A stretch of 64,000 nucleotides of DNA from the NCBI GenBank assembly GCA_040143965.1, contig JASJQH010000004.1, positions 1 to 64,000 of the forward strand, in the 5' to 3' direction. Both the position numbers and the translations under genes were made by a program. The DNA comes from Basidiobolus ranarum (lineage: Eukaryota). Below the pieces are notes generated by a model, which worked only from the letters and a program-made list of their open reading frames with translations, was not told the origin of the DNA and ran no database searches. Below are positions 1 to 29,215 of this stretch, piece after piece. Position 1 is the first letter of the stretch. Each line of letters starts with the position of its first letter.

Positions 1-837
1 ACGTTTAAGGAGCAGTGAAGTTGCCCATCGGTCTCTTACCTCGTATATTTTACTATGCGTAGTGATACCCTATAGTATTACCCTTGTTACTGATGATGCA
101 TATTAGAATGATCGCTCAATCAAAGGTGCAGATATGGCCGGGTTCAAGATCAAAGGAGATATCGATGCAAGTATCTTGCTCCTGCATTTTTAGGATTAAT
201 AATTGAAGAACATCGACGATATAAACTTCGGGTATTGATTCTACGATCCTTCAAGAACACTTAAAAATAAACCCTTTTTATCATGAAAATCACATCATTC
301 TTGATATTCTCGATAATAACTTCATGGACAAGGATTCGATATGTTGGTAAGGCACGCTGCACTCTTCTAACTCTACGTACCTGGTGATAAGTATGTAATT
401 GGCAATTCCGTTAAAATGTATATACAACATAAGAATTTACAAAGACATCGAATCAGTCTTGCACTGTAGGCTTCTAACTCTTTTTGGAAACCCTCTACAG
501 AAACTGTCTCAAACAATAAACATTTATAAAAATAACCGGGAATTGGACGCGGGACCTTCACAACCCAAACGAGGAATCATACGACTAGACCATTGAGCCC
601 TGGTTATTAATGTTAGAGATAACTCATTTCAATTTAAGAGAAACCACTATTTAAAAGAATAGTTGATCTTAATAGTGTAACATTGTACATGACATATTAT
701 GGAACAATGACGATGGCTATTCTCGAATATTGAAGCAATCAGGAGATCTATGTTTATTTGATTCAACTGGGCTAAACAACTCAGATGATCCTGACTTGTT
801 ATGAGTCCTCACTGCAGTAGTCAACACAACTATTTGC

Positions 838-3047
838 TCATTTTATTAAAACATGAGGAGTACACATAATAGAGGACCCGAGTTGGATTTTTTCTAGGTG
901 CGGGCTGTCAGGAGGAAGTGAGAGGGTATACCTCCTAACTTGAAAGGTCAGAGTGAGGATGGAACAAAATTAAGTGGAAATTAAGAGTTTGAAAGCTGCA
1001 TACCTAGCATAGATACTACCACTTTGATCTCGTTCATTGCAAACTTTCTACCAGCGCCTATAAATGATGTATCATTAATTGGAGATCTTCAGTACTCCAC
1101 TTACACACACATTTTACTTACACATTCTCTCGCCATTGATGAAAGAGCCCCATGCGGGTGGGTTCGGAATAAGCTTATCTGAGGAAAATCATCGAGTAGG
1201 GTCAAACTTTGTTGGGTCTGGCCAATATTTCTCATCACGATGCATAGCATAAATGTTCAGTGTGATCAACGAATTTTTTGGGATTACTACCTTACCAAGC
1301 AGAGTGTCTTGAGCAGCTATGCGCGTGGGTATTAAAGGAATTGGTACATATATGCGCATTGCTTCCTTGATCACAGCTTCCAAGTACTTCAATGCTAGCA
1401 AGCAATGGTCAGCTTTGCATTGACGAGGAAGTAGTAGTTATTCAAAGCGTACATTGCAGTTGCGCCATAGAAGGTATTTCCAACGAAGATGGGTCGAATT
1501 TGAACTCGCTTTCAGCCTCTTCTCTAACCTTGGTTTGGATTTCTGGGTATTTGGCCAATATGTACATAACCGATGAAAGGGCACTTGCAGTTGTATCTTT
1601 CAATGTAGAATTAGTAAGTAACCCAACCTCTGCGTAAAAGAAACTCCTTGTTACCATGGCCAGCGCTGATGAGAGTAACCATTTCACTCTAAGGGAAGCA
1701 TTTGATTAGTGTGGTAATTCAATTATGAGTATTGAAGTTTCTATTACAATCATATCCTCAAAAGTCAATGTTTTATTCATCCATGCTATCACGAGCACCG
1801 TGAGCAAGTCACAATCCGCTTTTTCCATATTGCACTGCTCATTTTGATTGATATTGACTTACGCAAATCCGCAATGGCCTGGCGTTCCTTGAACCTTTTT
1901 CCAAAGGGGAAGTGATCAAGGATAGGGAATGCTAAATACATTACATTGAAAGCGGCATTGGAAGCAGTATTATACAAAGCAACATGCTCGTTGTTAGGGC
2001 GATTAATGGCCTGTTGGAGTGTTCATCATTGCCAGATTACATGTCGGCAGTATTGGTTATAAACTGACAGTTAGTAGCCGTCAAAATGTCAAAGTGGCCT
2101 GTGATGGGAGTACCTCAAAATTAATGCCAAAAAGAACTTTCCCTAGGATATCTAGTGTTAGGCTGATATTTTTAGAATGTAAGTTATTACTCTTGACAAA
2201 TCTATCTTCATCCGACCACTCACAGTTGCATTGTATGAAATATATCCGGAACTGAATCCACAGTCGAGAGATGATTAAGAAACCCATAGATTATTTCGCC
2301 AACATTAGCGGGTTCCCAGCCTGCACGTAATAAGGGGCTCATCATATCGCGGCGCACCTTCCAATCCTACAAACATGATTTCTGTTAGTAAGTACCTAAC
2401 GCCCCTGTGTCTACCTATGGAATCTGACCTTGCCATTACTGTGTAGAAAGCCAGAAGAGAGCTTAGTAATCAGGAATAAAGATGTAGTGATTAAACTCGT
2501 GATGCTTACGCAGATACAACATTGTAGCCTAGAAAGTGGCTAATCAAAGTATGCGGAGCGGCGGTGTAAGATAGCTTCGGGAAGGTTTCTATAAACCGTT
2601 CTTAGATAGCGTGCTTGGGAGTATGATATATTGGTAATTACTCACCAGTGTTTCGCATGATATATAGGTAATACTCCTGGTTGGAAATCTAAACAATGAT
2701 TGAGCATTGACTGCTCAATAGATGCTGAAATCTAAATAAGCAATACCATAACTCCAGATTGCCCTTTGAAATAGCTCTGTAGAAATCTCGGGTTTAGGTA
2801 TCATCAGAGAAGAGTTTTATATTCGTGGGGTAATACGTACTCTAGCTATACCATCTTCACGTAGCGAAGGAATGTAGCATGAATCAAAGACATCGACAAT
2901 ATCTCTACCGAGGAGCATTTGAAATACAGCATACAGATCCTTGGTTTTTGGAAGATTTTGAAATTCCTTTGAGAAAGAGGTCCTACACCATCTGTATTTA
3001 ACAAAGATAACCGATAGAGCAGCGAGGGCGATGTAAAACAGTTCCAT
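838..3047 (-). pseudogene. Cytochrome P450 (multi-exon), probably pseudogenised by an in-frame TGA before the heme-binding exon
   Basis: N-terminal hydrophobic anchor (MELFYIALAALSVIFV), spliced I-helix AGHDTTAS, ExxR (KEAMR), PERF-like FDPTR, and spliced heme motif FINGERM-C-AGRKFAMNEIK. The last exon ends at TGA 838-840. An in-frame TGA lies at 1189-1191, directly after FDPTR. Not every internal exon boundary was verified. Confidence 0.8.
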
Positions 3048-3599
3048 CTTGATATCTGAATAGTGTTAGTTTAATTCAAAAGAGGAGCTGGTTGTCTGAC
3101 AAAAACCAAAGGACGAGCTAGATTATATGGCTTCCAGATCTGTCAAGTGACTGAATCTACATCATGATGGCTGGGTTAGCAAGGATGCGTTTGGTGGACT
3201 CCGCAAACCGCTTGTCTTAAAGCTGCATAGAATTTGCTACTAGTAAGGGGTAAGTAGCTATTAGAATGGGATATTACGCAACCGGCTCATTGTGGGCATG
3301 TCTTAATTGTGAACCTAAAAGGACAAAGATCTATGTTACGCATAATCTCTGAGACCGAGATTTTTTACCCGGATTAAATGTTGGAACCTTCGACCAATTA
3401 ATTCTCTCAAAATTTAATAGGCGTGGACAACCTCTGTTAGTTAGGTAGCATACCCAAATTTGGATTGTCTGTAAAATACCATTAAGTAAGATAACTAATA
3501 ATTCATAATTACGGTGCAACCCAAGTATTGGGTCGAAAAGTAAGTCGCACTTACAATAACATTTAGAGTTCTGATTTCACCTTTGAAATATCAAAGAAT

Positions 3600-6500
3600 G
3601 CTGCTTAGGCACTGCTAAATTAGGTGCCTAGTATGAAGTTGGAATAAGGAGCGAATGTAGGGATGTTTTATATGCCGAGTCCATTAGGTAACTTTTTGAA
3701 ATGTTGCCAAACAATAAATTCCATCATATATCTCTAGATATATATAGTTAGTGTTTAATATTAGTACTTAGTGCAAGGAGTCTCACCATTCAGCTACATA
3801 GCTTTACCTATCAGTAAAACCATATTCTAATTCACAGACCTGTGAACATTTCAAAAAGCCAAGCCATTTTTTAAATGCTTGCATTTCAATTCAAACACAA
3901 GTAGATATATCAAATATTCATTAATGGTTTTGTATAGTATAGACTTCTACTATAGTAGGATGGAATTACTGCAAAATTTATATGGATATTGTACTTGATG
4001 GAAGAATAATTAAAAGACATACTCGATTATAAGCTCAATATATATCCCTTGGGACAATTTCTAATAGTATTTATCAATACACTATGCTTTAGAATGTCTA
4101 CATACAGAATCCTCAAGTCTAACACTAAAAATTATAAAGATAGTGAATGTTTCTTACTCCTCCTTATTTTATCAGGTATTAGTGAACACCCGGTATATAG
4201 ATATAGTAATGAGTGAGTTTTCTCTATTTTCTAGATATCCGTCACAGAAGGCTCTTTTATATGAGCTATCCTTAATGCCCTTTCTAATATATCAAATTTT
4301 GCCTCTTCTGATTGCATATTTCTTTTACTTTACCAATCCTTCATCAACTTCTCTGGCAAAATCAGGCAAGAATGAACCTCTTGTGTCCAAGAGAAGAATA
4401 ATAAAAAGTCCTGAACTCCACTGAACTAAAAAATCAATTAAGTGCTGAATGTCAGAGCCATCTTAAGCAGAAGATATTAGCAGAGCTGATCTAACTAATA
4501 TCAGTCTTGAGAATAGCAATGATCTTGCTATAACAATAGAGCTTAGGCTTACTAGGCAGCCAGATTTGGTGTTCTGTTGATAGTAGAGGATACTAGGCTT
4601 TAATAGAAATGAGAGGGGATTATTAAAATAGCTAATAGACACTAAGCAGTTGATGACAATAATTATTGAGCTATACTGTTATGTCAAAGAGAAAAAAGAT
4701 AAATAGTCTTGAAGTTGACTGAACCAAAGGAACAATTAATCGCAGAATCCTAGAACCATTTAAGCAAGCAATATTAGCAGAGCAGACCTAGCTAATTAGC
4801 AGCAGTTTGCTATTAAACAAAAGAGAGTAGGTTTGCTAGGCAGCTATGCATGATGTTCTGTAGATACTAGTGAATACTAGCTTAAGAACATATAGTTTGT
4901 CATGTGATAGGTTACATGATGGAGTCATTGGATAAGGCCAGGTGAGTTGTTAGCAATGGTGATTAACTAAACAAATGCTTATGCTAGTAGAATAGGGACA
5001 GTGTAAGTTATGTAACTTTGTATATAGGTGCACAACAGTGCTAATAAAATAGATTACTGACTCTGATAGAAGAGAAATATGATTGGATATATCAAAAAAT
5101 AGGTAAACAAGTTATGCTCAGTGGAGGTCTTGGTAGGGAAAGATTTTTGGGTATAACTCTCATGATTCATATTTACCTATATCTTGGCAGATTCAATCAA
5201 AATCATGTAATAGGTCAATAGTATGACATAAGTGATAATAGAATATAGATTTAGTGTAGTGGCATGTCACATGAGGGAGTCCCTGGATAAGATCAGCAGG
5301 CTTGTTAGTTGTAGAGATTAACTAAAAAGATACTTATGCAAGTTTAAAAGTAATTGAATAAGTCAAACAATATTTGTATATTGGTTCAAATGAAACTTGT
5401 GATATTTCTAGCAACTGTGCCTATATTAATAAACCCTTATAAAAATGGCGAATATGTATTACTATCACCTAACATTGTATTTTATCATTGCCAGCAAATA
5501 GGAGTGTCTACAAAATGCTATAGTGAGGGTTGTAAAATGGTCTCTGGATAACATTTCTTGTATACAGGGCTTGTTCCCAGTGATAGTGCCAGATTGTGCT
5601 GTATAAATCATATTGGATAATGTATTCTAAAATATATATGGCACAAATTGGTACTGTCCAGCACCCTCTGGCATAATCAGTTTCAATTGCAATTACTCTA
5701 ATATACTGAGCCAAGTTCTGATAAATCCTGTCACAATGGAACAAGTCCACAGTACAACAAAATGATCAGTCAATTCATACAAATTGAGGCAGGACAACAA
5801 AATTTCTTTGCAGGTGCATAATGCTATCAGAGAACTATGTATCAAAAGTAAAGTTTGAAGGTTCATATCAATGACTGTAGGTGAAATAATTATATAATGC
5901 ACAAAATTCAGCAAAGAATTTCAAATATACAATAAAACTAGAATATAGCTCTAGAGTATGTCAAGGAGCATTAGGACTAGATTCAACAATAATCTGCAGT
6001 AAGTGATGTTCACAATGTTTTAACTGCTGAAATACATGTTTATTATTTCAATATGGCAAAGGTCAGCGCCTAGGCATCGGGTGAAATTAACTTAGTATAT
6101 GATTGCTCCTGATTCAAGCTATTTGGCTTATTCAAATTTAGTGGAGATTTCAAAGTTGTCCTGAAGCCCCCAACTTTGTAAATAGTATCGCACATGTTTC
6201 CCACTGTGGCCTCACTCTTTGCTTCTGGTATCTTAGACACAAGTGCAAGTACCAAAGTTTCAACTAATTAACCGAGAAGTGAAAACCTTACTTTCTTATC
6301 ATGGTTTGTATCACTCTCAATCTCCTTGCAAGAAGTAAATGCTGCAATGATCAGCTCAACTGTGGGAAAGCTTGTTGGGGATTAGTATGATTTCTTTAAG
6401 TTCAAGATGCATGTTAAGCTAGATTACTGGGGATTAGCAGGTGTAGTGATAGGTTTTGCAACGGTTCCTGATCAAACCTCTTTTTGTGATGTTTACCAAG

Positions 6501-6870
6501 AAAGAGAGACCTATGCCTTTAACACATGCTGTAGGGTCACTGAGGATCTGTCATTATTAAATATAGAAAATTAGCCCATATCTACACTACAAGGGAGTGC
6601 TGTTCTCAGGTAAGAAGCTCTTTAGAATACTCTATGAGATGAAGATGTCATCATGAACCTTCAGAGTAGTCATGTGGAAGAATGTTTCATGATTAGAGTA
6701 ACTTTGGAAACATATTTGGACAAATCAAGATTGAAGTATTTGGATGCAAGACTAGCTGACCTATAAAGCAGAAGCAAAAGTTTGAATAAGCTGTAGGATT
6801 ATAGTCCTTTTAGAGTTAGAAATTTTTGCTTTAGTATGCCCAAAATTTCGCTCTCAGCATAAACCCTTAG
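3600..6870. mobile_element. Degenerate AT-rich, CpG-depleted tract, probably a decayed repeat or transposon relic
   Basis: No intact long ORF, CG dinucleotides almost absent between ~4440 and 6050, many TAG/TAA triplets, and internal diverged repeats. No transposase or RT motif recognised. Boundaries are approximate. Confidence 0.4.
4460..5390. repeat. Two pairs of diverged direct repeats (~300 bp and ~350 bp spacing)
   Basis: 'atattagcagagctgatctaactaat...actaggcagc...gttctg...atactag' (~4474-4596) resembles 'atattagcagagcagacctagctaat...gctaggcagc...gttctg...atactag' (~4771-4880). 'catgatggagtcattggataag...tgttag...gattaactaaa...cttatgc' (~4915-4985) resembles 'catgagggagtccctggataag...tgttag...gattaactaaa...cttatgc' (~5270-5340). 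Confidence 0.6.
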
Positions 6871-6911
6871 GATATGAAGATCAGATATAAATATTACTTG
6901 ATGAAGATTTG

Positions 6912-8040
6912 GACCAGGAGAACTCTCTCATCTGCCACCCAGACTTCTATTGAGATTGATTCTTTATTCGAGGTAGTTGATTTCTACACCTCATTAACCT
7001 GTGCCAGATTCGAGGAACTCTGTCAGGATTTGTTCCGCTCCACAATGGACCCAGTTGAGAAGGTTCTCCGTGACTCCAAGATTGACAAAGCCAATGTTCA
7101 CGAGATTGTTCTTGTTGGTGGATCCACTCGTATCCCCAAGATTCAAAAACTGGTTTCTGACTACTTCAATGGCAAGGAACCCAACAAATCCATCAATCCT
7201 GATGAGGCTGTTGCTTATGGAGCAGCTGTCCAAGCAGCTATTTTGTCTGGAGATACCTCTGAGAAGACTCAAGATTTACTCTTACTTGATGTGGCTCCAC
7301 TCTCATTGGGTATTGAGACTGCGGGTGGTGTGATGACTGCTTTGATCAAGAGGAACACCACTGTTCCCACCAAAAAATCCGAGACATTCTCTACCTATGC
7401 TGATAATCAGCCTGGTGTATTGATTCAAGTGTTTGAAGGCGAGCGTGCCCGTACCAAGGACAACAACATTCTTGGTAAGTTCGAACTCTCCGGAATCCCT
7501 CCAGCCCCTCGTGGTGTTCCTCAAATTGAGGTTACCTTCGATGTTGATGCCAACGGTATCTTGAATGTATCCGCTTTGGATAAGACCACTGGTCGTTCCA
7601 ATAAGATCACCATTACCAATGATAAGGGTCGCCTTTCAAAGGAAGATATCGAGCGCATGGTCTCTGAAGCTGAGAAATACAAAGCCGAAGACGAAGAGGC
7701 AGCCTCTCGTATCTCGGCCAAGAATGGACTCGAATCCTATGCTTACTCACTCCGCAACACCCTTCAGGATGAAAAAGTTACTAGTCAATTAGAAGCAGAT
7801 GACAAGAAGAAACTCGAAGAGGCCATCAACAGCACTATCAGTTGGTTGGACGCAAGTCAAGAGGCTTCCAAGGAAGAGTACGAAGAGAAGCAGAAAGAAC
7901 TGGAAGGGGTTAGCAATCCTATTATGACTAAGATGTACCAAGCTACAGGTGGAGCCCCTGGTGGCTTCCCTGGAGCTGCTCCCCCAGGGGGATTCCCAGG
8001 TGGTGACAACAATGAGCCAACTGTTGAAGAATTGGATTAA
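6912..8040 (+). pseudogene. HSP70: Cytosolic Hsp70 (Ssa-type), 5'-truncated: end of NBD, SBD and EELD tail only
   Basis: [18 protein letters not shown]...[12 protein letters not shown]...[16 protein letters not shown]...GGFPG...EPTVEELD. Homology starts abruptly at ~6912, and no N-terminal ATPase exons (GIDLGTT) were seen upstream. Confidence 0.85.
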
Positions 8041-8960
8041 GCTAAAATCTTGTTCTTTTGATCTGTTTATAATCATGTATAGTATTTATAACCTCGACTA
8101 TTATGAAGTCAATATTAATAAACATTAATAACATTTAGATTTTGTATTTCACATATTATACCACCTTGAATGTTTTTCAGTTGCTTTGTGTACTAGTAAG
8201 GGATAGATAAAGCAGTAAGCTTCCTAGATAATGCAAGCAGATAGACAGACGGATTACTTGCACTAGATATTATCTATGTTATGTTGAGTTACTAACCCTT
8301 ACCCTTGTCAAAGATCGACTTAACCCTAAATTTTCAAATATATCTCGTACTTACAATGATCATGCCTTACTGCGCATTCCACAACAACTATGTGAAATAA
8401 GAACACTGATATTGATCTTTACTTGGTAGCACTACCGCTATGGACTTGGGGAGGGAATGCTAAATTTATAATGCAGGCACTTGCTGAAGTGGGATTGTCT
8501 TCTTCGTTTGAGTAGTTGTCAAGCAATGTAATACTCACTTTCCCTCTTTCCAAACGAGCAATTCATTCAAGATTAAGCCCCGTAGCGTTCAAAACATTGG
8601 CAAATTTATTAGATACACAAATAAGATGAGACAGCCTCTATCTGCTAACTATTGTACTTCTTGAGCACCAATTAACCTCTAATAACCAGCCAGCTCTTCT
8701 CACGTCTGTGGGCTTTTCACCGGAAATAAGTATTTCAAATGGAAGGAAAGGGGACGTACCCTCGACGACGTCGTGTGGAATTAGTAAAGATTTGAGTGTG
8801 AACGAGAGGGTAAGATGAAGGAGACGCTTTAATGGATGTCGGAAAGTGGCTCATCACATGATTGTAAAACACAGGACGAGCACATGGAGACCAGATATCA
8901 AATATGTAATATACATTTTCAGGTTTCGAGCGGTAATAAATTAAGTTCACGTTGAGTGTA

Positions 8961-9810
8961 TCAATCGGAGTCGATGTCCGGTACATCTTGCATCCTCATA
9001 AATACTCCCGAATCACTCTTCACAAGGATGGGTGGATTAGAGTACTGCTCTTTATATTGGATTAGTGTCTCGAGGGATATATCTACACCCCCGGTTATGA
9101 CTACGACGATGTTCATATTTTCGTCAAGGTTGGGCAGGAATTTCTGTATACTACGACTGTACAAGACTGATAAGGCGGCACCTGTACCTGCATCAACAAT
9201 CATTTGATGGTCATCTATGAAGGGTTTGGAAGATCGGTTAAAACGAAAGAACCCAATGACGGAAGGGTGAACAACAAGAAGATACCAGCAAATTTACAGC
9301 ACGCATCGGCCGCCATAGAGTCGGTGACGGAGAGAGGTAAAGAAGGATGCATGAAAGCCAGCTCCAAGGCTCGACTACATACTTGGCGAATCTCTAAGCC
9401 TTTAATTAAGGCTTGTGGACGGTCTAATTTAACAGATTGACCGGCTCTTATGGAGGCCTGGAAACTATTACTTTGATGGGTTTCTGCTACAATCACGGGA
9501 ACTGTTTGTTGAATGAAGAAACACGGACAGGTTAGAGACAGCAATCATGCAGTTTGCCCAAGTTGAATTGTGTACCTTTCGCCCAGCCACAATTTCGTAG
9601 ACCTTCGATTACCCCGCTCATTAAATCACCCCCACCCATCGGGCAAATCACTGCATCTGGGCATTGAAATGGAGCATTCTCGCTAAACTCATTTATCATG
9701 GTGGATATGCCCTCCCAGATATCTGGATCATCATATGGATGGATGTATTTCGAGTTTGGTGTGTTTTTGACGAATTCTCTTGCCAAACTCTCTGCTTCCT
9801 CGAACCCCTA
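8961..9810 (-). pseudogene. L-serine/threonine dehydratase-like (PLP fold type II), C-terminal half only
   Basis: Exons encode YIHPYDDPDIWEG, DAVICPMGGGDL, VPVIVAETHQSNSF, VTDSMAADACCKFA, MIVDAGTGAALS and VVVITGG. No upstream exon with the PLP-lysine (SFKxRG) motif was found before the next gene. Confidence 0.7.
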
Positions 9811-10207
9811 TCAAATTGACCCGATGATCAGTAAATAATATTCATTTTCTCAGGAATGGTAAAGGGGTTTAAGGAGTACAAAATCAGCATCTGTAAAGGA
9901 AAGCTCATCGGAATGAAAATTACTTTCACTTACTAATGAAGCCATCAAAAAATATGCTAATTTAAGCTTCAATTACAAATCAACATGGTTGCTCAGCACC
10001 TACTGTCTAACCGAGGATTATGCCAGGTCCGAGTTTATAGAGAACAATGCTCTCCGAAGATCAACAAACGAATACTGTTCTTCTCACCAAAGCAAGCATT
10101 GTTGGATCAGTTTAATAGTAATGTAACTAGTACATCATTTTATTGATAATAATACTTATACCGTTATATAAAGCTTAGGAAATACCACTTCAATAGCAGT
10201 ATTTGTT

Positions 10208-10705
10208 CTATTTTTCACAGTTCATATCACCTTTATCATTTCCATCAGCACCGCCTTTGCCCCCGCCATTACCATTATCTTCTCCATTACCATTTCCACC
10301 ATTAAAGGTATGCATAGTATCATAGGCACCAGCTTCGTTGTCTCCATTACCACCACCACCATTCATGATATGCATAGTATCATAGGCACTAGCTTCGTTA
10401 CCTCCATTTCCAGCAGCACCGTTAAAGGTATGCATAGTATCATCGGCACCAGCTCCGTGGTCTCCATTACCACCACCACCATTCATGATATGCATAGTAT
10501 CATAAGCACCAGCGCCGTTGTCTCCATCTCCCGCACCGCCATTGTCACTTTCATTCCCGCCATTGCCATTATTTCCTCCATTAAAGGTATGCATAACATC
10601 GTAGGCTCCATCCTTTCTCGCCTGTAATCTACGATTAAGAGTTACCCCATTGATAGCGGTGAGTCCAGAGAGAAGACATAGTAGTTTAGCAGCGGAAAAC
10701 TTCAT
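10208..10705 (-). CDS. Small secreted Gly/Asn-rich repeat precursor with five decapeptide cores (candidate peptide/RiPP precursor)
   Basis: ATG at 10705 gives MKFSAAKLLCLLSGLTAING (signal-like), a basic pro-segment NRRLQARK, then cores GAYDVMHTFN, GAYDTMHIMN, GADDTMHTFN, SAYDTMHIMN and GAYDTMHTFN separated by G/N/D/E spacers. Intronless, 165 aa. Confidence 0.85.
   Translation of the reverse strand: MKFSAAKLLCLLSGLTAINGVTLNRRLQARKDGAYDVMHTFNGGNNGNGGNESDNGGAGDGDNGAGAYDTMHIMNGGGGNGDHGAGADDTMHTFNGAAGNGGNEASAYDTMHIMNGGGGNGDNEAGAYDTMHTFNGGNGNGEDNGNGGGKGGADGNDKGDMNCEK
10301..10609 (-). repeat. 60-bp tandem coding repeat with 120-bp higher-order alternation
   Basis: 'tgcatagtatcat' recurs at an exact 60-bp period (10311, 10371, 10431, 10491). 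Units alternate HTFN/HIMN, and a fifth offset unit lies at 10580-10609. Confidence 0.95.
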
Positions 10706-11089
10706 TATTATTGAAAGAGATTTTCTAATATCCAAGGAAGATACTTTATTGTGATTTTCATGCAAAATAAGGAACTTTTTATAGGTATAAATGTTCCAAC
10801 ATCTTGTTTACTTCTTGATATTACTTCTCCTATATCAGAAATGCGTATGCATGGGGTAAGGTACTTGGATCATGGATATTATCCCACTCCACACTTGCTT
10901 CTTCACTATTCCTGGAGTTGGGATTCTTAAAGTTTCAATTTATCTTGATTTTTATAGATCAACCCAACCGACTATTTATGCCGTTTCATATAGAGTTATA
11001 TGAGGTAATAGGTAGGATGATTTATTGAAATAAGAAAACACATGATTATTTAAGTGGGGAAGCATGGCTATTGAAACGAGAAAATATGG

Positions 11090-14000
11090 CTATTTAAATC
11101 TGAAACACATGAATTGAGTTGATGTAGCTGCTCTAGTAGACTCCAATAACCTCTTTACATTCTCCACTTGTTCTTTTGATAAATCACGTTTACCATTACC
11201 ACCGGTATTTCTATTGGCCTCTTCCAAAGTGGTGTAGATCAATTTAAACGTTTCCGAAGCGGTGGTCGTGAAATAGGCAGCTAAGATTTGATTGAAGAAC
11301 TCCACTTCTAATGTCGCTTGCAAGAATCCACCTGCACCCACTTTATCCAGCTCACGGAATGATTTTAGCAAGCATTGCCCTAAATTGACTAGTAATTTCG
11401 ATAAAGCACGTGAGATGAGTTTCTTCGAAATGGAGTTGATCTCCGAGTGAGCTAGCACAATCTGCAGTAATGCTTCAAATACGTAGGGCCGTATAAAAGT
11501 AGGTTCATTCGGTGTATTCCAATCAAAGCCACTGAACAAAATCCCCGATTTGATGATTTCGTTGATTGGGGCGCCAATTCGTTTTAAATATTCTTCAAAG
11601 AGAGAGGAATCCAAACTGTCCACTAAATCAACCAATTTCTACAGGGAAATGGATAAATGAAATTGTGCTTGACATGGGGAGTGAAACGGCGCACATACCT
11701 GAACTATATCTGAGGTATTTCCCTTGAACGAAAGCTCAAATACTCTGGTCAGCTCCAGGATAATCATGGCTCGGAACTCACCCAATGTCTCTAGTGTGTG
11801 GAGTATAACAACGTTCTACGATCGTTTAAATATGGTGTTAAATAAAAAAACATGTTAAGTAGGAGCCTACCATGGATACTTTCTCGGGAGTACTCTCTAG
11901 AGTAGACGCTCCTTGATTGTCTTGACCAAACACTGCATGATTCAATGCGTCTAAGAAAGAGCACATTGTTTCGTAGAACGCTTGCTTGATGTGCTCATAA
12001 ACCTTTGATGACATCTAGTGTCGAATACATCGATCAGTTTCAACGGAGTCTCTATGGTATGAATGAGTGAGCCTTACCTGAGTGCCTCCACTTTCGTCGA
12101 TGTTCTCAGTATCCACAATGGAGCTTAGCGTGTGGATAGCATATCTCTGGAATTGAGTGAAGTCCTTCAATGAAGTCTTGCTTGAAGAATGGCGATGAAC
12201 CTCTGACAAGAAGAATTGCTTACAATCTAGTGCAAGTATGTTAGAAGTGTTGAGCTGAACTGAGGTTATGGATGGTACCAACCGTCTTTCCAACAATGAC
12301 AAAAGTAAGCGACAAAGTTCCATTTCACCATCTTGAGCAAATCGGCCAACTCGTTAGCAACTTGTCCGGCCATGGCCATTGCATTTAGCTCATTAGAGAA
12401 GGTGGTGAGATGGGTGATGATTTGGGTAAGGAAATAGCCGGTTAAGTAGGTATGAGTAGAAGGCAATTTGATTGGCATGCTGGCTTCGGAGGGAGAAACT
12501 CGGAAAGGGTTCTCCGGCGATTGATCAACAAAAAAGTCGGTATCAATAGAGAACACCTTGGATATCAAGCAAGCATAAAGCGTGAGGATTTGGTTGGCCA
12601 TTTCATGGCATTGCTCAACCTTTTGGATATTAACACCGTTGCGACGTCTGCGCAATTGATTCCATATGTTTCCGTTCTACATAGTAGAGTGGAGATGTAG
12701 TGAGGTGTAGAAGAGTCAGGTACATAACAACTTACCTTCTTAAACTTGTCATCGATAAACGATCTGGCAATTTTCCAATAATCTGGTAACGATTTGAGCA
12801 CCACATCAGACAAGGCTTTGACTACGTTAGCAATACCAAGCCAAATGCGAACACTATTATCCACTCCTATAAAGGTAAATGAACTTAACATGAGCCTACT
12901 CGAGACCAATATATCCGACTACTTACCAGAAACGCCTTCACCGCCTTTAGATTCGATGGCCTTTCGGAGCAAGGCCATTCTCTGAGCGGGGGTAATCTCT
13001 ATCTCAGTGAGATCTGCAAAGCAATGTGTTATCCCCGAGCACTATTGCACGCTGTTTAATAAAGTCACCTTACCATTTAGTTTTCGGCATTCTTCCTCGA
13101 AAGTGGTGTTTAAGCTTTGGACAATGAATTTGAATTGGCTTTCAAGATAAAACCAAACAGGGTCTATTTTGGAGTCCAACTCGAGTAAATAGCTGTCCCA
13201 TAGAAGTTGTTAGTAACGTGCAAATGAACCACCATAAACGCAACCAATCGTACATAATATTCTTCTCTTGTACCTCCATAGGTACGCTAGTATCCCCAAG
13301 TTGCTTGAATAAGTTTGTTCTCAGATGCATGACGATATCCTCGACCTCCTTCCAAACTTTATCCAAAAGTCGTTTGATGGACGCATCCTCAAATTCTGCC
13401 ACTGCATCTGTTGCTTTGTCGGTCGCTGCATGCTCTTGATTCTCTGGGTCGAAAACTGCGTTGGTGAATGATTGCATCGCCACCTTTCCTTTCTTATAAT
13501 CGTAGACGGCAACTTCGAATTTTTTCTAGCGAAAAGATCAACAATCTGACCATACAATAACCAATAGAATAGAAGCTACGAACCTCCTCGATAGACTCAA
13601 GTAGATTGCAAGGAAGATTGAATAACAACCGATAACGATCAATGGCCGTCAGCGTGCTTCGGATTTTGAGTCCCTTTTGAATGCGTTGCATGATGGGACC
13701 AAATGCTTCATGAGCCTTGTCGGTGGTTTCTAATCCCGGTACAAAGGTAGAGACTAAATTAAGGAGCCACTTCAAATCAAAACCAGACAGTCTTACCTTC
13801 GAGACACTGACGCGTTACTTTGGTTCCATACTCCTCCTTTTCGTTTAAATTCTTGGATTTCATTTCCGTGTAGACAACTAATTTCAACGCCAATTTAGCT
13901 CTGCTTTCTTCCCTGGCAGTATAAAAACGATCAAAAAGTTCCTACCTTCCACTGTATTCTTGGCGCAAACAAAACGATCGAAATTGTCTTTGACCAGTGT

Positions 14001-14650
14001 CTTGAGTGCCTCAGAGCGTTGCTCAATCGTTGCACGTAAATGATACTTTCCGTGAACTAGCTCTGTGTAAGTAGTATCCAAGTGGAACTGTTTCATAAAC
14101 AACGTCGGATCGAAATATCGGTCGGTAATGAACACTGAAGCTCTTCCTAGAGTAAGGGAAGGGATAGGAAATAAATTACACTATGTATCAGTAAGGTATT
14201 GTTAGAAAGGTCATTGTTACCTCTTGATTCTCTAAGTAAACTTTCTCCTCTAGATAATCTCTTTTCACCCATGAGACTTCTACAAAGCCAATATTCTTAG
14301 TGAAGAGCATATGGAACTGAATTTAACAAAATAGAACAACCTTAGATTCCCTTCTTTTAAACCTAAAGGGTCTCCTTCATCTTCTAACAACTCCTCCTCC
14401 TCGACCTCCGGTTTAGAAGTTCTAGCGTATGCAAAATTTGGAACCGCCGACCAGGCGAATTCTTCGATGTCAAGCTCAGGTGTATCTGTTTCAACCCAAG
14501 AGTTTGGTTGTAAAGTGTCCAAACTGTAGTGACGTAATACTTGAACGAGATAATAAAGGTTAATTTCAGGGTGAGAGCAGAGTCTATTAAACAAAGAAAA
14601 AGAAAATAATTCGTACACTCTTCTTCGTCGAACCGTTTAAAGTAGCTCAT
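11090..14650 (-). CDS. SEC5: Exocyst complex component Sec5/EXOC2 (multi-exon)
   Basis: Start MSYFKRFDEEE; DPLG motif; FDPTLFMKQFHLDTTYTELVHG...LKTLVKDNFDRFVCAK; RYRLLFNLP; IRPYVFEALLQIVLAHSE; GGFLQATLEVEF; C-terminal TSTQFMCF. Confidence 0.92.
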
Positions 14651-15221
14651 TGGGCTGACTGATTTCAAGATGAGTCCGATAGGTCTCACAAAGTGAGTAG
14701 TTTTTATTAATCAAGTGGGCAGAAAAACTCTCGGTGTTTTCGTAGTATGGCTTCACCGATACTTATTGTAACGAATAGTGATGTAGTTGGTTAAGATTTA
14801 GAAATAGAAACTACGAATATTATTTAAAGGTGAAGTTTAGAAAGTCTCATTTAGTATAAATATTAGCACTTCATCGCATAAATTACGATTGAAATTATGA
14901 ATGTTTACTTGGGTATTTCATATGGTAACTGCGTGAAATTGAACTCATCTCCATTCATCGAGGAGCTTCATGTGATTCTATTCAGTTCATAAGGTTTATA
15001 TAGGTGTGACTGATATGAATTTCAAATCGTAGTCCTAACAATAATCCATACTAAAAGAAAGCGCTACTTTGTGGATACGTGCTATTTTTAATGAACCATT
15101 CTAAATATATGTATATAAGTTCAAATAGCAAACAGTACAATATCTCGAATACACATCATTGCTTAAGGAACGTATGATAAAATCCAAGTTAAATATGAAG
15201 AAATTTATCAAATTCGCTATT

Positions 15222-15864
15222 TCAAAAAGGTAAAATTGGGTTGAGTTTTAAACCATTCTCGAGTTCTCTTTTCTTCTTTAAAGCTTTTTGTTTGCGATTC
15301 TTTAATTCATTTAATAGTTCTAACGAAAGAGTACAATTGTTCAGTATTTATTCAGAAAGATGAATGGAAATTTTTCTCTCTCTTCCTACCATATTGTGGA
15401 TATATATATATAATAGGAAATGGAAAGAAACTTACCTTCTTTTTTATCGGAGGTACGGTAACGAAGTAAAAATTCTTGAAAACCAACTAAGGGGGTTTCC
15501 AGTTCCTAAGCAATTCCCATTGTTATAAAGGGAGTTTTCAACAAAGAAACAAACAATTTGAACTACCTTTTGAAGGATTTTCAGCGTTGTTTGTCTACGT
15601 TCAAGTAAATCCTCCAAGTTCTTTATGGAACTTTGTAAACTCTCAGAGTGAGAAAATTGGTTTCTCAAGTGTGTTACAAGCAAATCTAATCTATATTTCA
15701 AATGAATCCTAGAGTTGACAATGCTTAATACAAAAACACCAAACCATAAAAGGCCACACACAATGTACTAACAATTCCTCACTAGTTACTGAATATTCAG
15801 TTTCTGATGAAAAGGCTGTATGCATTCCAGCTAATGTATCCTCCAAATACTTGGCGTCTTCCAT
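15222..15864 (-). CDS. Small four-exon coiled-coil protein of unknown function (~133 aa)
   Basis: Manual splicing with GTTAGT/GTAGTT/GTAAGT donors and TAG acceptors gives one continuous frame: MEDAKYLEDTLAGMHTAFSSETEYSVTSEEL/IHLKYRLDLLVTHLRNQ...KILQK/ELETPLVGFQEFLLRYRTSDKKE/ELLNELKNRKQKALKKKRELENGLKLNPILPF*. Confidence 0.55.
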
Positions 15865-16164
15865 TATTGCGGTTGGACCCAGAATGTATCTGAACACTCG
15901 TTTGAAAGAATTTAATTTTAAATGCTTAAGCAAGCAATCACAATCATGTGATGCATGGATATCATTAAAGTGTTTATTAAATCGAATGAATTTATCAGAA
16001 ATAGATGGTAAAATAAGTAAATGGATTTCACGAAAGAAAGGCGACAAAGTAGCGATAAGTAATATTTACAGGAAAGAGCATCTCGAAAAGGTAGAGAGGA
16101 TCAAGTCTTACTCGAAAGAATGAAGGTTATTACTCCCAAATTTTCAAGGTGACTTTTGAATTGC

Positions 16165-19100
16165 TCACTTTTTGGGCGGAGGCTGTTGCTGTTGCTGAGC
16201 ATACGCTCCACTATGGTGTGGAAACATGCCAGGCATACTCATAGGTGCCATAGTATTTGAATATGTAGGATTTTGGTTACCCGGAGTAGAGGTCATGGGG
16301 TGGAAAATCTGTGAAGACGTGGATGGTGATTGCATTGACATGTGAGGGTGACGAGGGTATCCAGTTCCAACGGGAACCACTGGTGACTGTGGTCTACGAC
16401 CATATTGGCTCACATCCATAACAGAGGGGGAAGTTGTACGTCGATAGTGGCTTGCGTCTATGGTAGCGGGCGATGCGGTACGGCGAATTTGAACTCCATC
16501 TAAAACAGCCGGCGAAGTGGTTCTGTACCCGGATTGATCTAAGATCGCAGGCGATCCTGTTCTGTAAGGGGTGTTGTCAAGTATAGACGAGGAGTCCCGG
16601 TGTAAAGATCTAGATTGCTGAGGTTGAGGCTGTTGATATTTTGGAAGTGAAACGGGTGGGTACACGAAGGAAGAATTGTTGTTAATATTTTGACCGACAG
16701 GCGTTGAGCTACGGTGAGGTGGCTGAATGTTTTCACCATAGCGTGGTCCTAAGGAGCTTTCTCGGGCATCATAAGTATGCTGACTAGAAGAGATTTGTGG
16801 AGATTGTCGATACATAGATTGATGGCCAACATTCGAATGTGGTAGTGAATCAGCTGAAAGATTTGGCGATGGTGCAGAGGAGTGATATCCTTCCTGAGAA
16901 TGAGGAGCTCGGTGACCATGTTGGAAATTCACCGCTCCTTCCACAATGTCGGATCCAGAATAAGTCTGATGCTGATTTGACCTGGTTTGTGGATAGTTGA
17001 GATGATCAGAAGTAAAAGGAGACTGATGAGGGCTATTAGAGACTGCTTCTCTTGTATTTTGCGAGAATATAGGTTGGCTTAGGTCTCTTGTACGGCCAGT
17101 AGACACTGGGGTAGAATGGCGAATTGGTTGATTAAGCGGTTGAGATGAATGAGAGGAAAGTTGTACTGGTAAAGATTGTAGTTGTGAAGGGTTTGAGGGT
17201 TTACGTGAGTGGCTAATCGGTACGGGTTGAAGGGGGCTTGATGTCCGACGAGGTAGAGCTTGATGAGGTGAAGGGAGGCTCATAGCCGGTGACTGAGAAC
17301 GAGAATAAACATTAGTTTGTTGGGGCATTCCGGGAGAAGGTTGAATTGATGGGTGACTTGGACGTTGATGAGGGATGGGTGCATGATAACTAGATTGGTG
17401 AGAAGACTGCTGGTGTAGAGATGGGTGAGGGTATTGTGTTTGACGTGCTGAGTTATCCACAGATGGGATATGCACCTGAGAAGGATGTTGTATTGGTGAC
17501 TGAGATAGAATTCGGGAGTGAGATGGTTGTATTTGTGACTGTGGTTGTAGCTGAGGTTGGACGAGCGCACGCGGCTTTGATTGAGTCTGCCTTCCTTTGG
17601 TAGAAGTTCGAGAAGTTTGTGGAATCGAATTTTGGTTTACTAGCTGTGCAATAGGTACTTGAGAATGTGATGAAGTCTGAGAAGGAATTTGGCTTAACGA
17701 AGCTTGGCGTGCAAGTTGCCCGTGATTTTGAGGTTGAGAAATTAACTGGCTTTGGCTACCAGCTCGGCGACGAGATTTACCAGCAGCTTGCGGTTGTACC
17801 GTTGCGGTTTGAGTGCCTGATTGTGATGTATTCAATCCTACTGGAGGTGATTGCAGCTGAAGAAGTTGAACTTGCGGTTGGGTCGATGGATTGCTTTGAA
17901 GGTGTACAGGTTGAGATGTGGTAGCTTGCTGTCTCATCATCTGTATAGGATCCGCACTGGAACCATGGATACTTTCGATCGATCTGCGATTCAAGTTCGT
18001 ACCAGGATTCACTTCGGGTGCCGCCATAGAATAGGTTGGCGGTTGAGTCTTATACGATGTAGAGTAAAGATCTTGCATATAGGAATAAGAGTTGCTGGGA
18101 GTTGTAGACTGACTTTGGCTAGTAACAGGATTTGCGTTGAATTGAGATTGAATGTGACTATTCTTGGATTCAATCACATTTGGTGAATTGAACTGCTCCG
18201 GTGATGAGACTGGTCCAGCATCCTCTCCAAACCAATCCATTAACGCGTTCTTACCTACTTTGACAGTTTTGGGCTCATCTTCAGTAGGTGCATTCAGTAA
18301 GGAAAAGATATCTGTTACGCCTCTGGCTCGTGGAGGAGCAGGTTTTGGAGCGGCAGGTCGAGTTTCTTGTCGATCGACATCGAAGTATGCTGATTCTATT
18401 TTTGAACTCATTGAAGACGTAGAGTACTCTGATCTAGTCGGAGATATTACAGGAGCTTCCACAGAAGCAGGATGATTGAGAATCCTGGAAACCGAGGATT
18501 GTTTCTTATATTCTTGTGGGAAATCACTACGATAATACTCCGATCGATTTTGAGACATCGACGTACTCACCGAGGGAGTTGGCATTTGGGTACTAGGATA
18601 TGTATAGCCAGGTGGTGCTTGATCACTGGGGGTAGCTTGGTATGTAAGATTGGGTAAAGCAGATCCTTGTTTGGTTGGCCCCATTTTCTCGCTGTTCATT
18701 GAAGTAATGTGAGAAGCCGATGAGTTTGTTGTGTTCGGTACATATCTAGTTAAAGGTATGGTAGGTTGGGCCTCTATTCTACGAGATGATTCAGAAGTAC
18801 TTGGTGGAATACTTCCTAACAACGGATTCTCATGAGGGTAATGCAATGTGGGCTTGACCGAACTTTGACTATATGCAATAGTTGGTCCAGTTGAACTAGT
18901 TGCAGGTGGATAATTGCTAGAAGCTGATGATACAAGAGGCTGTGCTCTGGTATCTACAAATTTCGTATTGTTACTTGGTTGAGGATTGATAACACTAGAT
19001 TGATGAGCAAAGTTTGGATGGTTCGTCATACTATATTGCTGCCGGGATTGCTGAACGCCTACACTATCAGATGTGAGACCAGTTTGATGAATAGTAGAGC

Positions 19101-22100
19101 CTTCTTTGCTTGCTACGGTCGTTCTGAATGCCCCCATAGGTTGAACAGATGTTGTTAAAGCATTCTCACTAGCACTACTAATCTCCCATGATTTTTTACG
19201 ACTCTCCAGTAAAGTATCATTTGTTGGTGTTGACGTGATCGGAGAAGACGAAACTTGAGTTGATGAAGACTCCATAATCTGCTGTGTCACCGATTCACCA
19301 TACTTCCTAGAGGCAGAAAATTGACTTGAAGGATCCTTGTTCACTTGATTTCCAGACAGTGGTGCGAATGAATTGTTCACAAGAGAATGATGGGAAAGGG
19401 TTTTCCCGAAATATGAATCAAATCCAGATGGCTCGACAGCCTTTTCATAAGCTGGCGATGTTTCAGTAGAAACAGTATTATTTATACTATTCATGGCGTC
19501 CACATTAGAGGTCGGGTATTTGCCTTGAGGGTGGGAAAGGCTAGGATTCGATGCACGTGACTGCGGAGTCGTATTCCTAGTTGAAGTAGTTACATTCACC
19601 GATGGAGAGTTCGAGAGAACTGTGGTTGATTGTTGTGAAGAAACGCTGAATGGTTGATATGCAGGTTCAGATGGTGTAGGAGCGCCTTTGTTGATCAATA
19701 ATTCACCTTTATCCGACGTAGATCTAATAACTGAAGGCTGATTAAAGATCTGTCCCGAAGGAATCACACCATATGGCAGAGTTGTTGGGATTGTTTTAAC
19801 TCTGGAGCTATCTTCATTGATGGACGGAGATCTAGAAGCCTGAGTAGTCATAAAAGCAATTGAGGTCGAACCGCTCTTAGATTGGACAGGGATAGGTCCG
19901 TCATTAACTGTAGGTATAATTGATGGAGCAGTGGTAGGTACATCTCGATTATTCGGAAGACTTGAATTGGTATTTGATGCAAGGGTCTGTTGTGAAAGTA
20001 TATTGATCGGATTTCCGGATATATTCTTATCTAGTAGGCCATCTGGTATGAATTCTTTCTTGGGATTTACTTGAGCAACAGCGTCAGGGTTCATTACCTT
20101 CGTCGTAGTCATATTTGAAGATTCATCTGAACTCTCTTGTACATTTCCGGTATATGTAGGAGATTTAGCTCTAGTCCCAACAATAGGCAAAGGCAAGTTC
20201 GCTGCTGTTTCTAAGCTTTCCTGAGCAATTGACTGAGAATGAGACACATTTGAAGTTACATCCTGTGGTTTCGAAGAATCACTGCATACAGTAGAAACTC
20301 TAATCTCCTCATCGACAACAGCAGAGGCATCGGAATTGGGTTGAGAAGTAGGATATGCACTATGCGCCTTCTTTTCCACATCTTCGTCAGAAGAGCTCTT
20401 GGTTAAAGCATTGGGTTGGTTATAAAGAGAAGAAACATCTTCAGATCCTTCCAGCAATTGCGAATTGACCGTTGAATGAAGTGCAGAATCAAGGACTGAA
20501 GACGAACTAACATCGGTCGCTTCTTCTTGCGGCAATTTGCTCGTATTTTCTTCAAATTCCCTCACCAATTCTTCTAATGACAATCGATCAATATTACTAG
20601 AATAATATTCTTCAATATCAGATGGCTTCTTGGATTTGACACGCTCGGCAATTCTGATCCAATCCTTCCCGTATAATCGAAGGCATTCAACGAATTCAGC
20701 TTGCTCAAAAGTAGACCAGCTATCTAATACTGTTGACATAGCAGCTTCAGATATAGGCTTAGTCTCTGAGCTCGTTTCGTCTTCATCATCCGTAGAAGAT
20801 GCTGATAAAAGTGCTCTATTAATTTCCTCCTCTAACAAAGCATCATCTTCATCAACAGTTTCGGAAGTCTCTCTTTTCCGATCTAATAATTCCTCTTCAT
20901 CAGAGCTAGGAATATCTAGTGAAAGATCAAAGTCTTCCACTAAGGGCTGAGAAGCGGTGACACTTGGAGTACGATCGGGCTCCATCAACTTGTTACTTTC
21001 GTTTATAGAACTAGGAGAAAGAGATATACTAATAGATCCTTCAACAGGTTTGCTCTCACTTTGATCAGTAGCGCTGGGCGGAGGTACAATAAAAGCTGTT
21101 CCTTCCTCCTCAACAATAGTTTCTTCTTCATCTGAACTGTCTTTGTCAAGTATATCCTCAATGGCGGCGTTAAGCTCATCAACAATATCCATCTCGTCCT
21201 GTGAAGAAGACTCCTCTTTCTCTGCGGGAAGTGATTCCGTTTTCTTTTCCGGAAGTTTCTTCTTATCTTGAAAGGATAATCCTTCCTTTTCCGTAGGACG
21301 CGACTCTCTCTTCTCTTGTGAAAACAACTTCTCTTTTTCTAGAGGGGGTGGTCTCTCCTTCTCCATGAGGAGAGATTCCTTCCTTCTCTGTGGAGGCAGC
21401 TCATTCTTTTCCTGAGAAGGAACTCCTTTCTTTTCTTGTGAAGGTAGCATTCTTCTTTCTTGTGCAGAGAATAGTTTTTTCTGTTGAGATGGCAATCCTT
21501 TTTTTTCTTGATGAAGTTCTTTCCTTTCTTGAGACGATAGTACTCTTTTCTCTTGAACAGGCAATGTCTTTTTTTGCGACGGTGATCCTTTCTTGTCTTC
21601 AAGAGTTTTGGCTCTATACCCAGCTTCCTTTTCATTCTGGACAAATTTTCCGCTTAGAGCTTTGACAGGAATAGGCTTCGTAGACATATTTCGATTAAAG
21701 CCAGATTTGACAACCCCTGGCTTTCCAATAATAGGCTTACTAGGCTTAATAAATAACTTCCCTACAGCACTCTCATTATGAGGTTGATGCGATTTGATAC
21801 CAAAAGGCTTATGAGGAGTAGGTCTAATAGATGAACTGTCTGAACCAGTTGGTTTTGCCATAAAAGATTTCCCAATAGTAGACTCAGCCTTGCCTGAAGC
21901 AGGTTTGGTACTTTGAGATTTGGCAGGTGTAAACCGAGTAGTATTTCCCTCATCTGCCATGGCCTTTTCAAATGGAGATTTGGTGTGAACGGTAGTACTA
22001 AGCGCAGTTTTCGTGTGATCCAAGTTTTCTTCGTTAGTACCTGATTTGCCAACTACCAAATCCAAACGTGAGTCGTTATCGTTATTCTGTTCATTTACTA

Positions 22101-28558: not shown

Positions 28559-29215
28559 ATGAACTTCTCACTTCTTAAAACCTCAGTGAGTGCTAGCAGA
28601 CTTACTTCGAGACTTGCGGTATCCGCTTTGTTGCCCAAACAGCGTGCTGTTCGTTGTTTTGCTTCCGAATCCCAGGGTACTAAAGGGACTGAAAGTAAAA
28701 CCGAAAATGTTGAAGGCAATGAGTCCAAAAAACATACCGATTTCATTTTAGAGACATTGCGTGGTATCGGCAGTAATCCTGGTAAGGCTGCTCGTGCTGG
28801 TTCTATGGGTACTTTGCCATTTGATTTATCAGCACCCAACTTCACTTCACAAAAGGACCAAGGCTTTACTCACTGCCTATCTGTTCATGCCAGTTATAAC
28901 AACACTATTGTAACTCTAACCAATCCTGAAGGTAAGGTTCTAGTCAACGCTTCTGGAGGTACCTGTGGCTTTAAGAAAGCCAACCGTGGTGGTTATGAGC
29001 CCGCCTATCAAGCAACTACCAAAGTCATCGAAAAGACTAAAGAGCTTGGGTTGAACATCAGTGGTTTGCATATTAAATTAAGAGGATTTGGCCCTGGTCG
29101 AGATGCTGCGTTCAAGGCTGTCCGCTCATTATCTGCATGGAACGTCACAAGAATTACCGATACTACCCCTGTTCCCTTCAACGGCTGTAGACCTCGTAAA
29201 CCTCGTCGTTTGTAA
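28559..29215 (+). CDS. MRPS11: Mitochondrial ribosomal protein uS11m
   Basis: Basic presequence, then HASYNNTIVTLT...ASGGTCGFKKANR...LRGFGPGRDAA...ITDTTPVPFNGCRPRKPRRL. Confidence 0.93.
   Translation: MNFSLLKTSVSASRLTSRLAVSALLPKQRAVRCFASESQGTKGTESKTENVEGNESKKHTDFILETLRGIGSNPGKAARAGSMGTLPFDLSAPNFTSQKDQGFTHCLSVHASYNNTIVTLTNPEGKVLVNASGGTCGFKKANRGGYEPAYQATTKVIEKTKELGLNISGLHIKLRGFGPGRDAAFKAVRSLSAWNVTRITDTTPVPFNGCRPRKPRRL

Follow-up and report, generated by a model that had tools for sequence, protein, structure and literature searches.

The closest described systems are the Kex2-processed repeat proteins (KEPs), a fungal class defined by Le Marquer et al. and Umemura 2020 (PMC7329392). In the KEP survey, members carry at least three tandem repeats of at least 8 residues, none above 100 residues, separated by KR, KK, RK or RR, and Basidiobolus meristosporus, with 43 KEPs, has the most among the 1461 fungal strains surveyed (PMC7329392). 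That survey describes STE13 as trimming XA/XP dipeptides in alpha-pheromone-type KEPs, and a core Tyr as needed for the ether cross-link of dikaritins such as the ustiloxins (PMC7329392). Four classes of fungal RiPPs are recognised according to a second paper (PMC9233826).

Against this background we analysed a gene within 64 kb of Basidiobolus ranarum DNA (positions 1 to 64,000 of contig JASJQH010000004.1, hereafter the window). Positions 10208–10705 of the minus strand hold an intact 165-codon open reading frame (ORF; P0001), read as an intronless and complete coding sequence of 165 residues followed by TAG, with no splice donor of consensus type inside it (Table 1). An earlier note on this DNA had proposed a secreted multi-core peptide precursor here, and its ORF, coordinates and five decapeptide cores agree exactly with ours; a six-frame scan of the window with the core motif returned these five copies and no more. 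The start codon has A at −3, and two B. ranarum homologs with the same N-terminus support the minus-strand frame; for that reason a plus-strand frame, open for 151 codons across the repeat, was set aside. From these features we take 10208–10705 to be a real gene. Its exact 165-residue product is absent from a public collection of 15 billion proteins, in which two other ORFs of the window (28559–29215, plus strand; 48973–49962, minus strand) are present, and the ESM Atlas holds a letter-for-letter match; the repeat gene probably lacks annotation in the public record that contains those two ORFs.

Table 1. Features of the repeat gene and its surroundings, in window coordinates
Feature	Positions	Strand	Basis or remark
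TATA-box-like element, TATAAAAAG	10775–10783	−	begins 78 nt upstream of the ATG; putative promoter element
Start codon ATG	10705–10703	−	ORF reading
Signal-peptide-like N-terminus MKFSAAKLLCLLSGLTAING, aa 1–20	10646–10705	−	hydropathy and −3/−1 heuristic
Basic pro-like segment VTLNRRLQARKD, aa 21–32	10610–10645	−	R25, A29 and R30 invariant in three proteins
Core 1, GAYDVMHTFN, aa 33–42	10580–10609	−	alone among the cores with a clear homolog counterpart
Core 2, GAYDTMHIMN, aa 66–75	10481–10510	−	
Core 3, GADDTMHTFN, aa 86–95	10421–10450	−	
Core 4, SAYDTMHIMN, aa 106–115	10361–10390	−	
Core 5, GAYDTMHTFN, aa 126–135	10301–10330	−	
Hydrophilic G/N/D/K tail, aa 136–165	10211–10300	−	sole Cys is Cys163
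Stop codon TAG	10210–10208	−	ORF reading
AATAAA, possible polyadenylation signal	10139–10144	−	64 nt past the stop; putative role
Tandem array, period 60 nt (20 aa) nested in period 120 nt	10281–10543		Tandem Repeats Finder
Cytochrome P450 exons	1189–1705	−	
Hsp70	6871–8040	+	
PLP-dependent enzyme (PALP, serine/threonine-dehydratase-like), C-terminal two thirds	about 8964–9807	−	downstream of repeat gene
Sec5 exons	11090–14180	−	upstream of repeat gene
3378-codon ORF with Myb domain	16165–26301	−	

The leader contains the hydrophobic core LLCLLSGLT, its top Kyte–Doolittle 9-mer (2.18) lying at aa 8–16, and candidate signal cuts compatible with the −3/−1 rule fall after aa 13–22, both by heuristic only. 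On this footing the protein is probably secreted, in agreement with the suggestion of a small secreted precursor bearing five near-identical decapeptides. Successive cores are separated by Gly/Asn/Asp linkers of 23, 10, 10 and 10 residues, and the repeat unit, a decapeptide plus its linker, measures 20 residues. Beyond aa 20 the chain has a pI of 4.36: acidic residues outnumber basic ones by 21 to 7, Gly makes up 28% and Asn 16%. It has one N-x-S/T sequon and does not end in a GPI-type hydrophobic C-terminus, the last 20 residues having a mean hydropathy of −1.64.

Structure prediction gives a mean pLDDT of 44.7 and a pTM of 0.17 in AlphaFold2 (three-sequence alignment), with a sole modelled helix at aa 5–31, and a pLDDT of 0.48 in the ESM Atlas model; a sequence search of the PDB returned nothing meaningful, just a chance match (E=0.13) to a beta-glucosidase. 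By these models the protein is predicted to be disordered, with no predicted fold. An RTX-type calcium beta-roll, considered for the GGxGxD-like linkers, was rejected: the period is 20 residues and not 9, and there is neither a Pfam match nor an AlphaFold fold.

The protein matches no Pfam family even at E≤10, and the strings of the core motif do not occur in roughly 8.4 million searchable papers and preprints or in the KEP survey's supplementary tables (PMC7329392), which bears out the remark that the family was not a recognised one. Neither the whole protein nor aa 1–45 found a match in word-indexed homolog searches, and relatives were recovered only by an exhaustive phmmer scan and a two-sequence profile search. 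The former, run against 1.84 billion representative proteins, returned four proteins at E≤1e-3, of which P0002 (96 aa, E 1.1e-8) is the one credible relative; the other three, long bacterial or unnamed repeat proteins whose E-values sum 3–14 copies of one weak stretch, were rejected. The profile search adds P0006 (103 aa, E 9e-18). P0002 and P0006 are partial hypothetical proteins of B. ranarum at NCBI (KAK9709718.1 and KAK9701114.1), and neither has a Pfam match. Further afield, a metagenome scan with the family alignment gave 67 pattern matches, none of them confirmed, the nearest ESM Atlas clusters (0.76–0.78) lie below the level that shuffled proteins reach, and structural matches in that atlas align only to signal-peptide helices. 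On these searches the gene is best placed in a Basidiobolus-restricted, hitherto uncharacterised orphan family, whose conservation is thinly sampled with three members, two of them partial and missing their later parts.

In pairwise BLASTP, aa 14–49 (10559–10666, minus strand), which comprise the end of the leader and core 1 with the pattern NGVT.NR...DG..D..FT.N.G, are 42% identical over 36 aa to one blade junction of DUF5122 (PF17164), and the phmmer matches P0003 and P0005 are DUF5122 proteins. A DUF5122 origin was rejected: the unit HMM scores the protein at just 9.4 bits and the two relatives at 0.8 and 1.6, Pfam is silent and, unlike the bacterial DUF5122 beta-propellers, the protein shows no significant multi-copy profile match. 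We judge the resemblance to be chance.

Comparison of the three family members shows that the signal-like N-terminus is their best-conserved part. BLASTP of the N-terminus gives 24/42 identities (E 4e-15) with one relative and 26/41 (E 5e-18) with the other, a leader identity of 57–63%, and the common leader, MKFS..KLL..LSG...IN..T..R...AR..GAYDV...F, gives way to a low-complexity chain rich in G/N. Invariant positions comprise the signal peptide, R25, A29, R30, G33-A-Y-D-V37 and F41, whereas the RR pair is kept in two of the three proteins and the RK pair in one. The refuting outcome named in the earlier note, homologs that do not preferentially conserve the cores, is half realised: the relatives retain the G-A-Y-D-V..F of core 1 but carry Ser-Asp or Thr-Asp at its Met-His position, and its tenth residue is Thr in P0002 and Asn in P0006. 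Downstream, both relatives run into irregular G/N/Y-rich sequence with GGYGAG, APDYSG and GGYGPG stretches, in which later 'cores' are reduced to one GAYDT or GADDT, 49 and 63 residues on. The conserved family unit would then be the leader plus G-A-Y/D-D-V/T and not the decapeptide, the Met-His...Asn half being, as far as the three sequences go, private to the 10208–10705 gene; the relatives have the look of a glycine-rich secreted protein rather than that of a regular peptide cassette.

This comparison bears directly on the chemistry that had been proposed for the cores. Copper transporters and the prion protein bind Cu(I) through Met/His motifs, and the acidic, flexible chain after the leader counts 8 Met and 6 His among its 146 residues, with M-H in every core and M-H-x-M in two. 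It is thus conceivable, though we consider it doubtful, that the protein or its peptides bind Cu or Zn through the Asp-x-Met-His(-x-Met) motifs, or that a cut after the core Asp would yield (T/V)MHxxN hexapeptides whose N-terminus presents an X-X-His site of the ATCUN type; such binding overlaps with, and is compatible with, either an intact chain or a precursor. The relatives, however, have not a single His along their 96 and 103 residues and lack the Met-His pair, so that metal binding by Met-His cannot be the conserved function of the family, and the specific chemistry proposed for the cores is not supported. Binding by Met-His may be a property of the 10208–10705 member alone.

At the DNA level, the repeat is a tandem array, the sole one scoring at least 80 in the window. 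Tandem Repeats Finder describes it as 4.1 copies of a 60-nt period with 82% matches and 0% indels, or as 2.1 copies of a 120-nt period with 88% matches, and core repetition far above chance is explained by this duplication of DNA. The two IMN-type units are identical at 28/30 nt in the core and at 28/30 in the linker, and the latest duplication appears to have copied a TFN-type plus IMN-type pair as one 120-nt block. Greater conservation of cores than of spacers, as claimed in the earlier note, is in this setting only weakly true: across the in-register units 2–5, 7/30 core columns vary against 13/30 linker columns (Fisher p=0.17), but across the interior units 2–4 the figures are 7/30 and 7/30, with no difference. 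The apparent contrast comes mainly from unit 1, with its 23-residue spacer, and from the C-terminal tail. Linkers are built of runs of GGN/AAT codons, with TRF periods of 6 and 12 nt at 10266–10298, and faster change in them could come from replication slippage alone. For the most part, the tidy 'cores' result incidentally from recent tandem duplication. A hint of constraint on the decapeptide itself comes from core 1, which remains identical to the other cores at 22–26/30 nt though the spacer of its unit differs in length and sequence. Summed over all core pairs, 14 synonymous and 24 nonsynonymous codon differences are compatible with some constraint, in numbers too small to test.

The array also raises the question of whether the gene works at all. 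A young or decaying ORF held open by a stop-free minisatellite would account for the recent duplications, for the opposite strand being open over 151 codons and for the exact product being missing from the large protein collection in which the two other window ORFs are found. Such an origin seems quite unlikely to us, given a leader that matches two annotated B. ranarum proteins in its hydrophobic core and Arg positions, the lack of any frame-breaking indel across four units, the synonymous share of the core differences, and a start context, TATA-like element and AATAAA that are all plausible.

We then consider the surroundings of the gene, where enzymes that tailor peptides might be expected from the precursor proposal. 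Stop-to-stop ORFs were scanned against Pfam, comprising 32 of the 61 of at least 65 aa in 1–16200, 28 of the 53 of at least 90 aa beyond 26300, and the longest ORFs, a scan that short exons could escape. Among the window ORFs scanned there is no DUF3328 (UstYa), tyrosinase, legumain (Peptidase_C13), prolyl oligopeptidase, methyltransferase or BURP domain. A cytochrome P450 is the one candidate from the earlier list of co-occurring enzymes; about 8.5 kb, with two unrelated genes (Hsp70 and the PALP fragment), separate its exons from the repeat gene, and there is no sign of a functional link between them. The other genes seen in the window are of the housekeeping kind, namely those for ribosomal proteins, the KDEL receptor, ETF (electron transfer flavoprotein), a PKA regulatory subunit and protein kinases, and a BCKDH-kinase-like gene.

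Several neighbours are of interest in their own right. The PALP gene matches positions 111–262 of the 295 in the Pfam profile, and no piece matching the first ~110 positions, within which the PLP-binding lysine presumably lies, is present at 9807–11089 on the minus strand; the gene may be a pseudogene truncated at its 5' end, the lost part having been where the repeat gene now sits. The absence of any PALP-like piece in that interval also led us to reject the repeat ORF as a PALP exon or as a passenger in a PALP intron. Two uninterrupted minus-strand ORFs of 3378 and about 1470 codons (16165–26301 and 29641–34062), ~3 kb apart, each combine a weak match to DUF7952 with a Myb DNA-binding domain and may be a duplicated pair encoding giant Myb proteins. 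At 50728–54075, also on the minus strand, protein-kinase pieces precede a response-regulator receiver domain (Pkinase + Response_reg), an architecture that we take to be that of Rim15-type kinases.

Turning to processing, the protein could be a multi-core precursor that does without Kex2 sites, in which removal of the signal peptide and a cut near the R-x4-R segment would be followed by a linker endoprotease and Ste13-type trimming of X-Ala. The five short peptides so released, of the type YD(T/V)MH(TF/IM)N, would serve in signalling, as antimicrobials or as substrates for RiPP formation. A conserved leader with diverging cores is the pattern of many precursor families, and here the leader with R25, A29 and R30 is conserved while the cores are uniform within the gene and differ between paralogs or orthologs. 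The signal-like leader, five cores of equal length at 20-residue spacing and the retention of core 1 beside a diverged spacer fit as well, and four of the five cores have two X-Ala dipeptides ahead of Tyr or Asp, XA/XP being what STE13 recognises according to the KEP survey, which also shows the genus to be rich in KEPs (PMC7329392). Against this, the dibasic pairs of the protein are confined to aa 25–26 (RR) and 30–31 (RK), both before core 1; no KR, RR, KK or RK lies between cores, just as the earlier note had observed, and the published KEP definition (PMC7329392) therefore fails. Linkers match the cores in length and are about equally conserved within the array, the homologs have no regular cores, the core motif is missing from the supplementary and literature sources searched, and none of DUF3328, tyrosinase, methyltransferase, legumain or prolyl oligopeptidase was found among the window ORFs scanned. 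Taken together, we regard such a precursor, the main rival to the reading preferred below, as unlikely, while giving it appreciable weight. A particular Kex2-free route, which would be a novel way for an early-diverging fungus to make peptides from a repeat protein, with Asx cuts in the G/N linkers and X-Ala trimming yielding secreted metallophore-like or signalling Met-His peptides in the animal gut that Basidiobolus inhabits, we hold to be improbable; its short peptides would possibly bear an N-terminal X-X-His copper site.

Excision of the decapeptides by an asparaginyl endopeptidase with head-to-tail cyclisation, or amidation via the following Gly, had been suggested by the layout of the cores: Gly opens four of them and Ser the other, and each ends in Asn with a Gly next to it. 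The composition of the chain makes this very improbable. Asn-Gly is the commonest dipeptide type in the linkers too, 18 of 23 Asn and 10 of 16 Asp in aa 20–165 lie outside the cores, and every core has an internal Asp, and therefore an Asx-specific enzyme would shred the chain instead of singling out the cores. The first cores of the homologs, one ending in Asn and one in Thr, and the lack of a legumain domain among the window ORFs scanned argue in the same direction, and amidation would need a cut after Gly, where there are no basic residues.

The reading that we prefer, and to which we give an even chance, is that of a lineage-specific secreted, acidic, disordered Gly/Asn/Asp-rich protein acting as an intact chain. 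The 20-residue unit of decapeptide and G/N linker would have been amplified by recent tandem duplication into five 'cores', the final step copying the two-unit block, and the protein would work outside the cell, as a wall- or matrix-associated low-complexity protein, trimmed at most N-terminally near the conserved R-x4-R segment. A short Tyr/Asp/Met/His motif would be presented several times over on flexible G/N linkers, and its Tyr, Asp and Met-His pairs may serve as points of multivalent contact, cross-linking or metal ligation. For this reading speak the conservation of whole units and not of cores alone, the lack of inter-core dibasic sites, and surroundings (Hsp70, the PALP fragment and Sec5) with no adjoining tailoring-enzyme domain. 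Points against it are that no wall anchor was found (no GPI-type tail, a single sequon), that the invariant R25 and R30 and the X-Ala pairs in four of five cores fit a processed precursor, and that peptide-from-repeat biology is common in Basidiobolus according to the KEP survey (PMC7329392).

On present evidence this is an ordinary orphan low-complexity repeat protein, a new peptide system is not demonstrated, and the RiPP or signalling-peptide interpretation as a whole is partly supported. Fungi commonly have secreted repeat proteins confined to one lineage, most of which lack an explanation, and the 10208–10705 gene offers a clean small example. If its product were cut into peptides, surveys based on dibasic sites would be missing a class of fungal peptide precursors, and five Met-His peptides would be ready to test for metal binding.

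Set beside the known systems, the protein resembles KEPs in its ER-signal-like leader (by heuristic), in a repeat of five 10-residue cores in 20-residue units, which lies within the published bounds, and in the X-Ala dipeptides ahead of its putative peptides, as in alpha-pheromone-type KEPs; it differs in having G/N/D linkers of 10–23 residues in place of short protease sites (PMC7329392). Among the papers listed for Basidiobolus and RiPPs, none apart from the KEP survey deals with such a precursor (PMC7329392). With the precursors of ustiloxin-type dikaritins, for example UstA (PMC7329392, PMC9233826), it shares a putative signal peptide and a repeated short Tyr-containing core, yet Tyr is present in four of its five cores, core 3 carrying Asp instead, whereas the dikaritin cross-link asks for Tyr in every core (PMC7329392). 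Also unlike dikaritin precursors, it is a repeat protein without Kex2 sites and with no DUF3328/UstYa, tyrosinase or methyltransferase in the window ORFs scanned.

Plant cyclotide and PawS-derived precursors are multi-core proteins that are cut and cyclised by asparaginyl endopeptidases, and the cores described here, starting with Gly or Ser and ending in Asn followed by Gly, are laid out in a similar way; the Asn/Asp-filled linkers, the Asp in every core, the absence of core cysteines and the loss of the terminal Asn in one of two homologs set them apart. Secreted glycine-rich low-complexity proteins are also found among plant cell-wall GRPs and in the Gly/His-rich shepherin precursor. With these the protein has in common a putative signal peptide, a Gly content above 25%, predicted disorder and Tyr/His motifs scattered along the chain, and its B. 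ranarum relatives, with their GGYG-like stretches, come especially close to such proteins in look. It differs from them in being Asn/Asp-rich and acidic with a regular decapeptide, and the likeness is so far one of general character.
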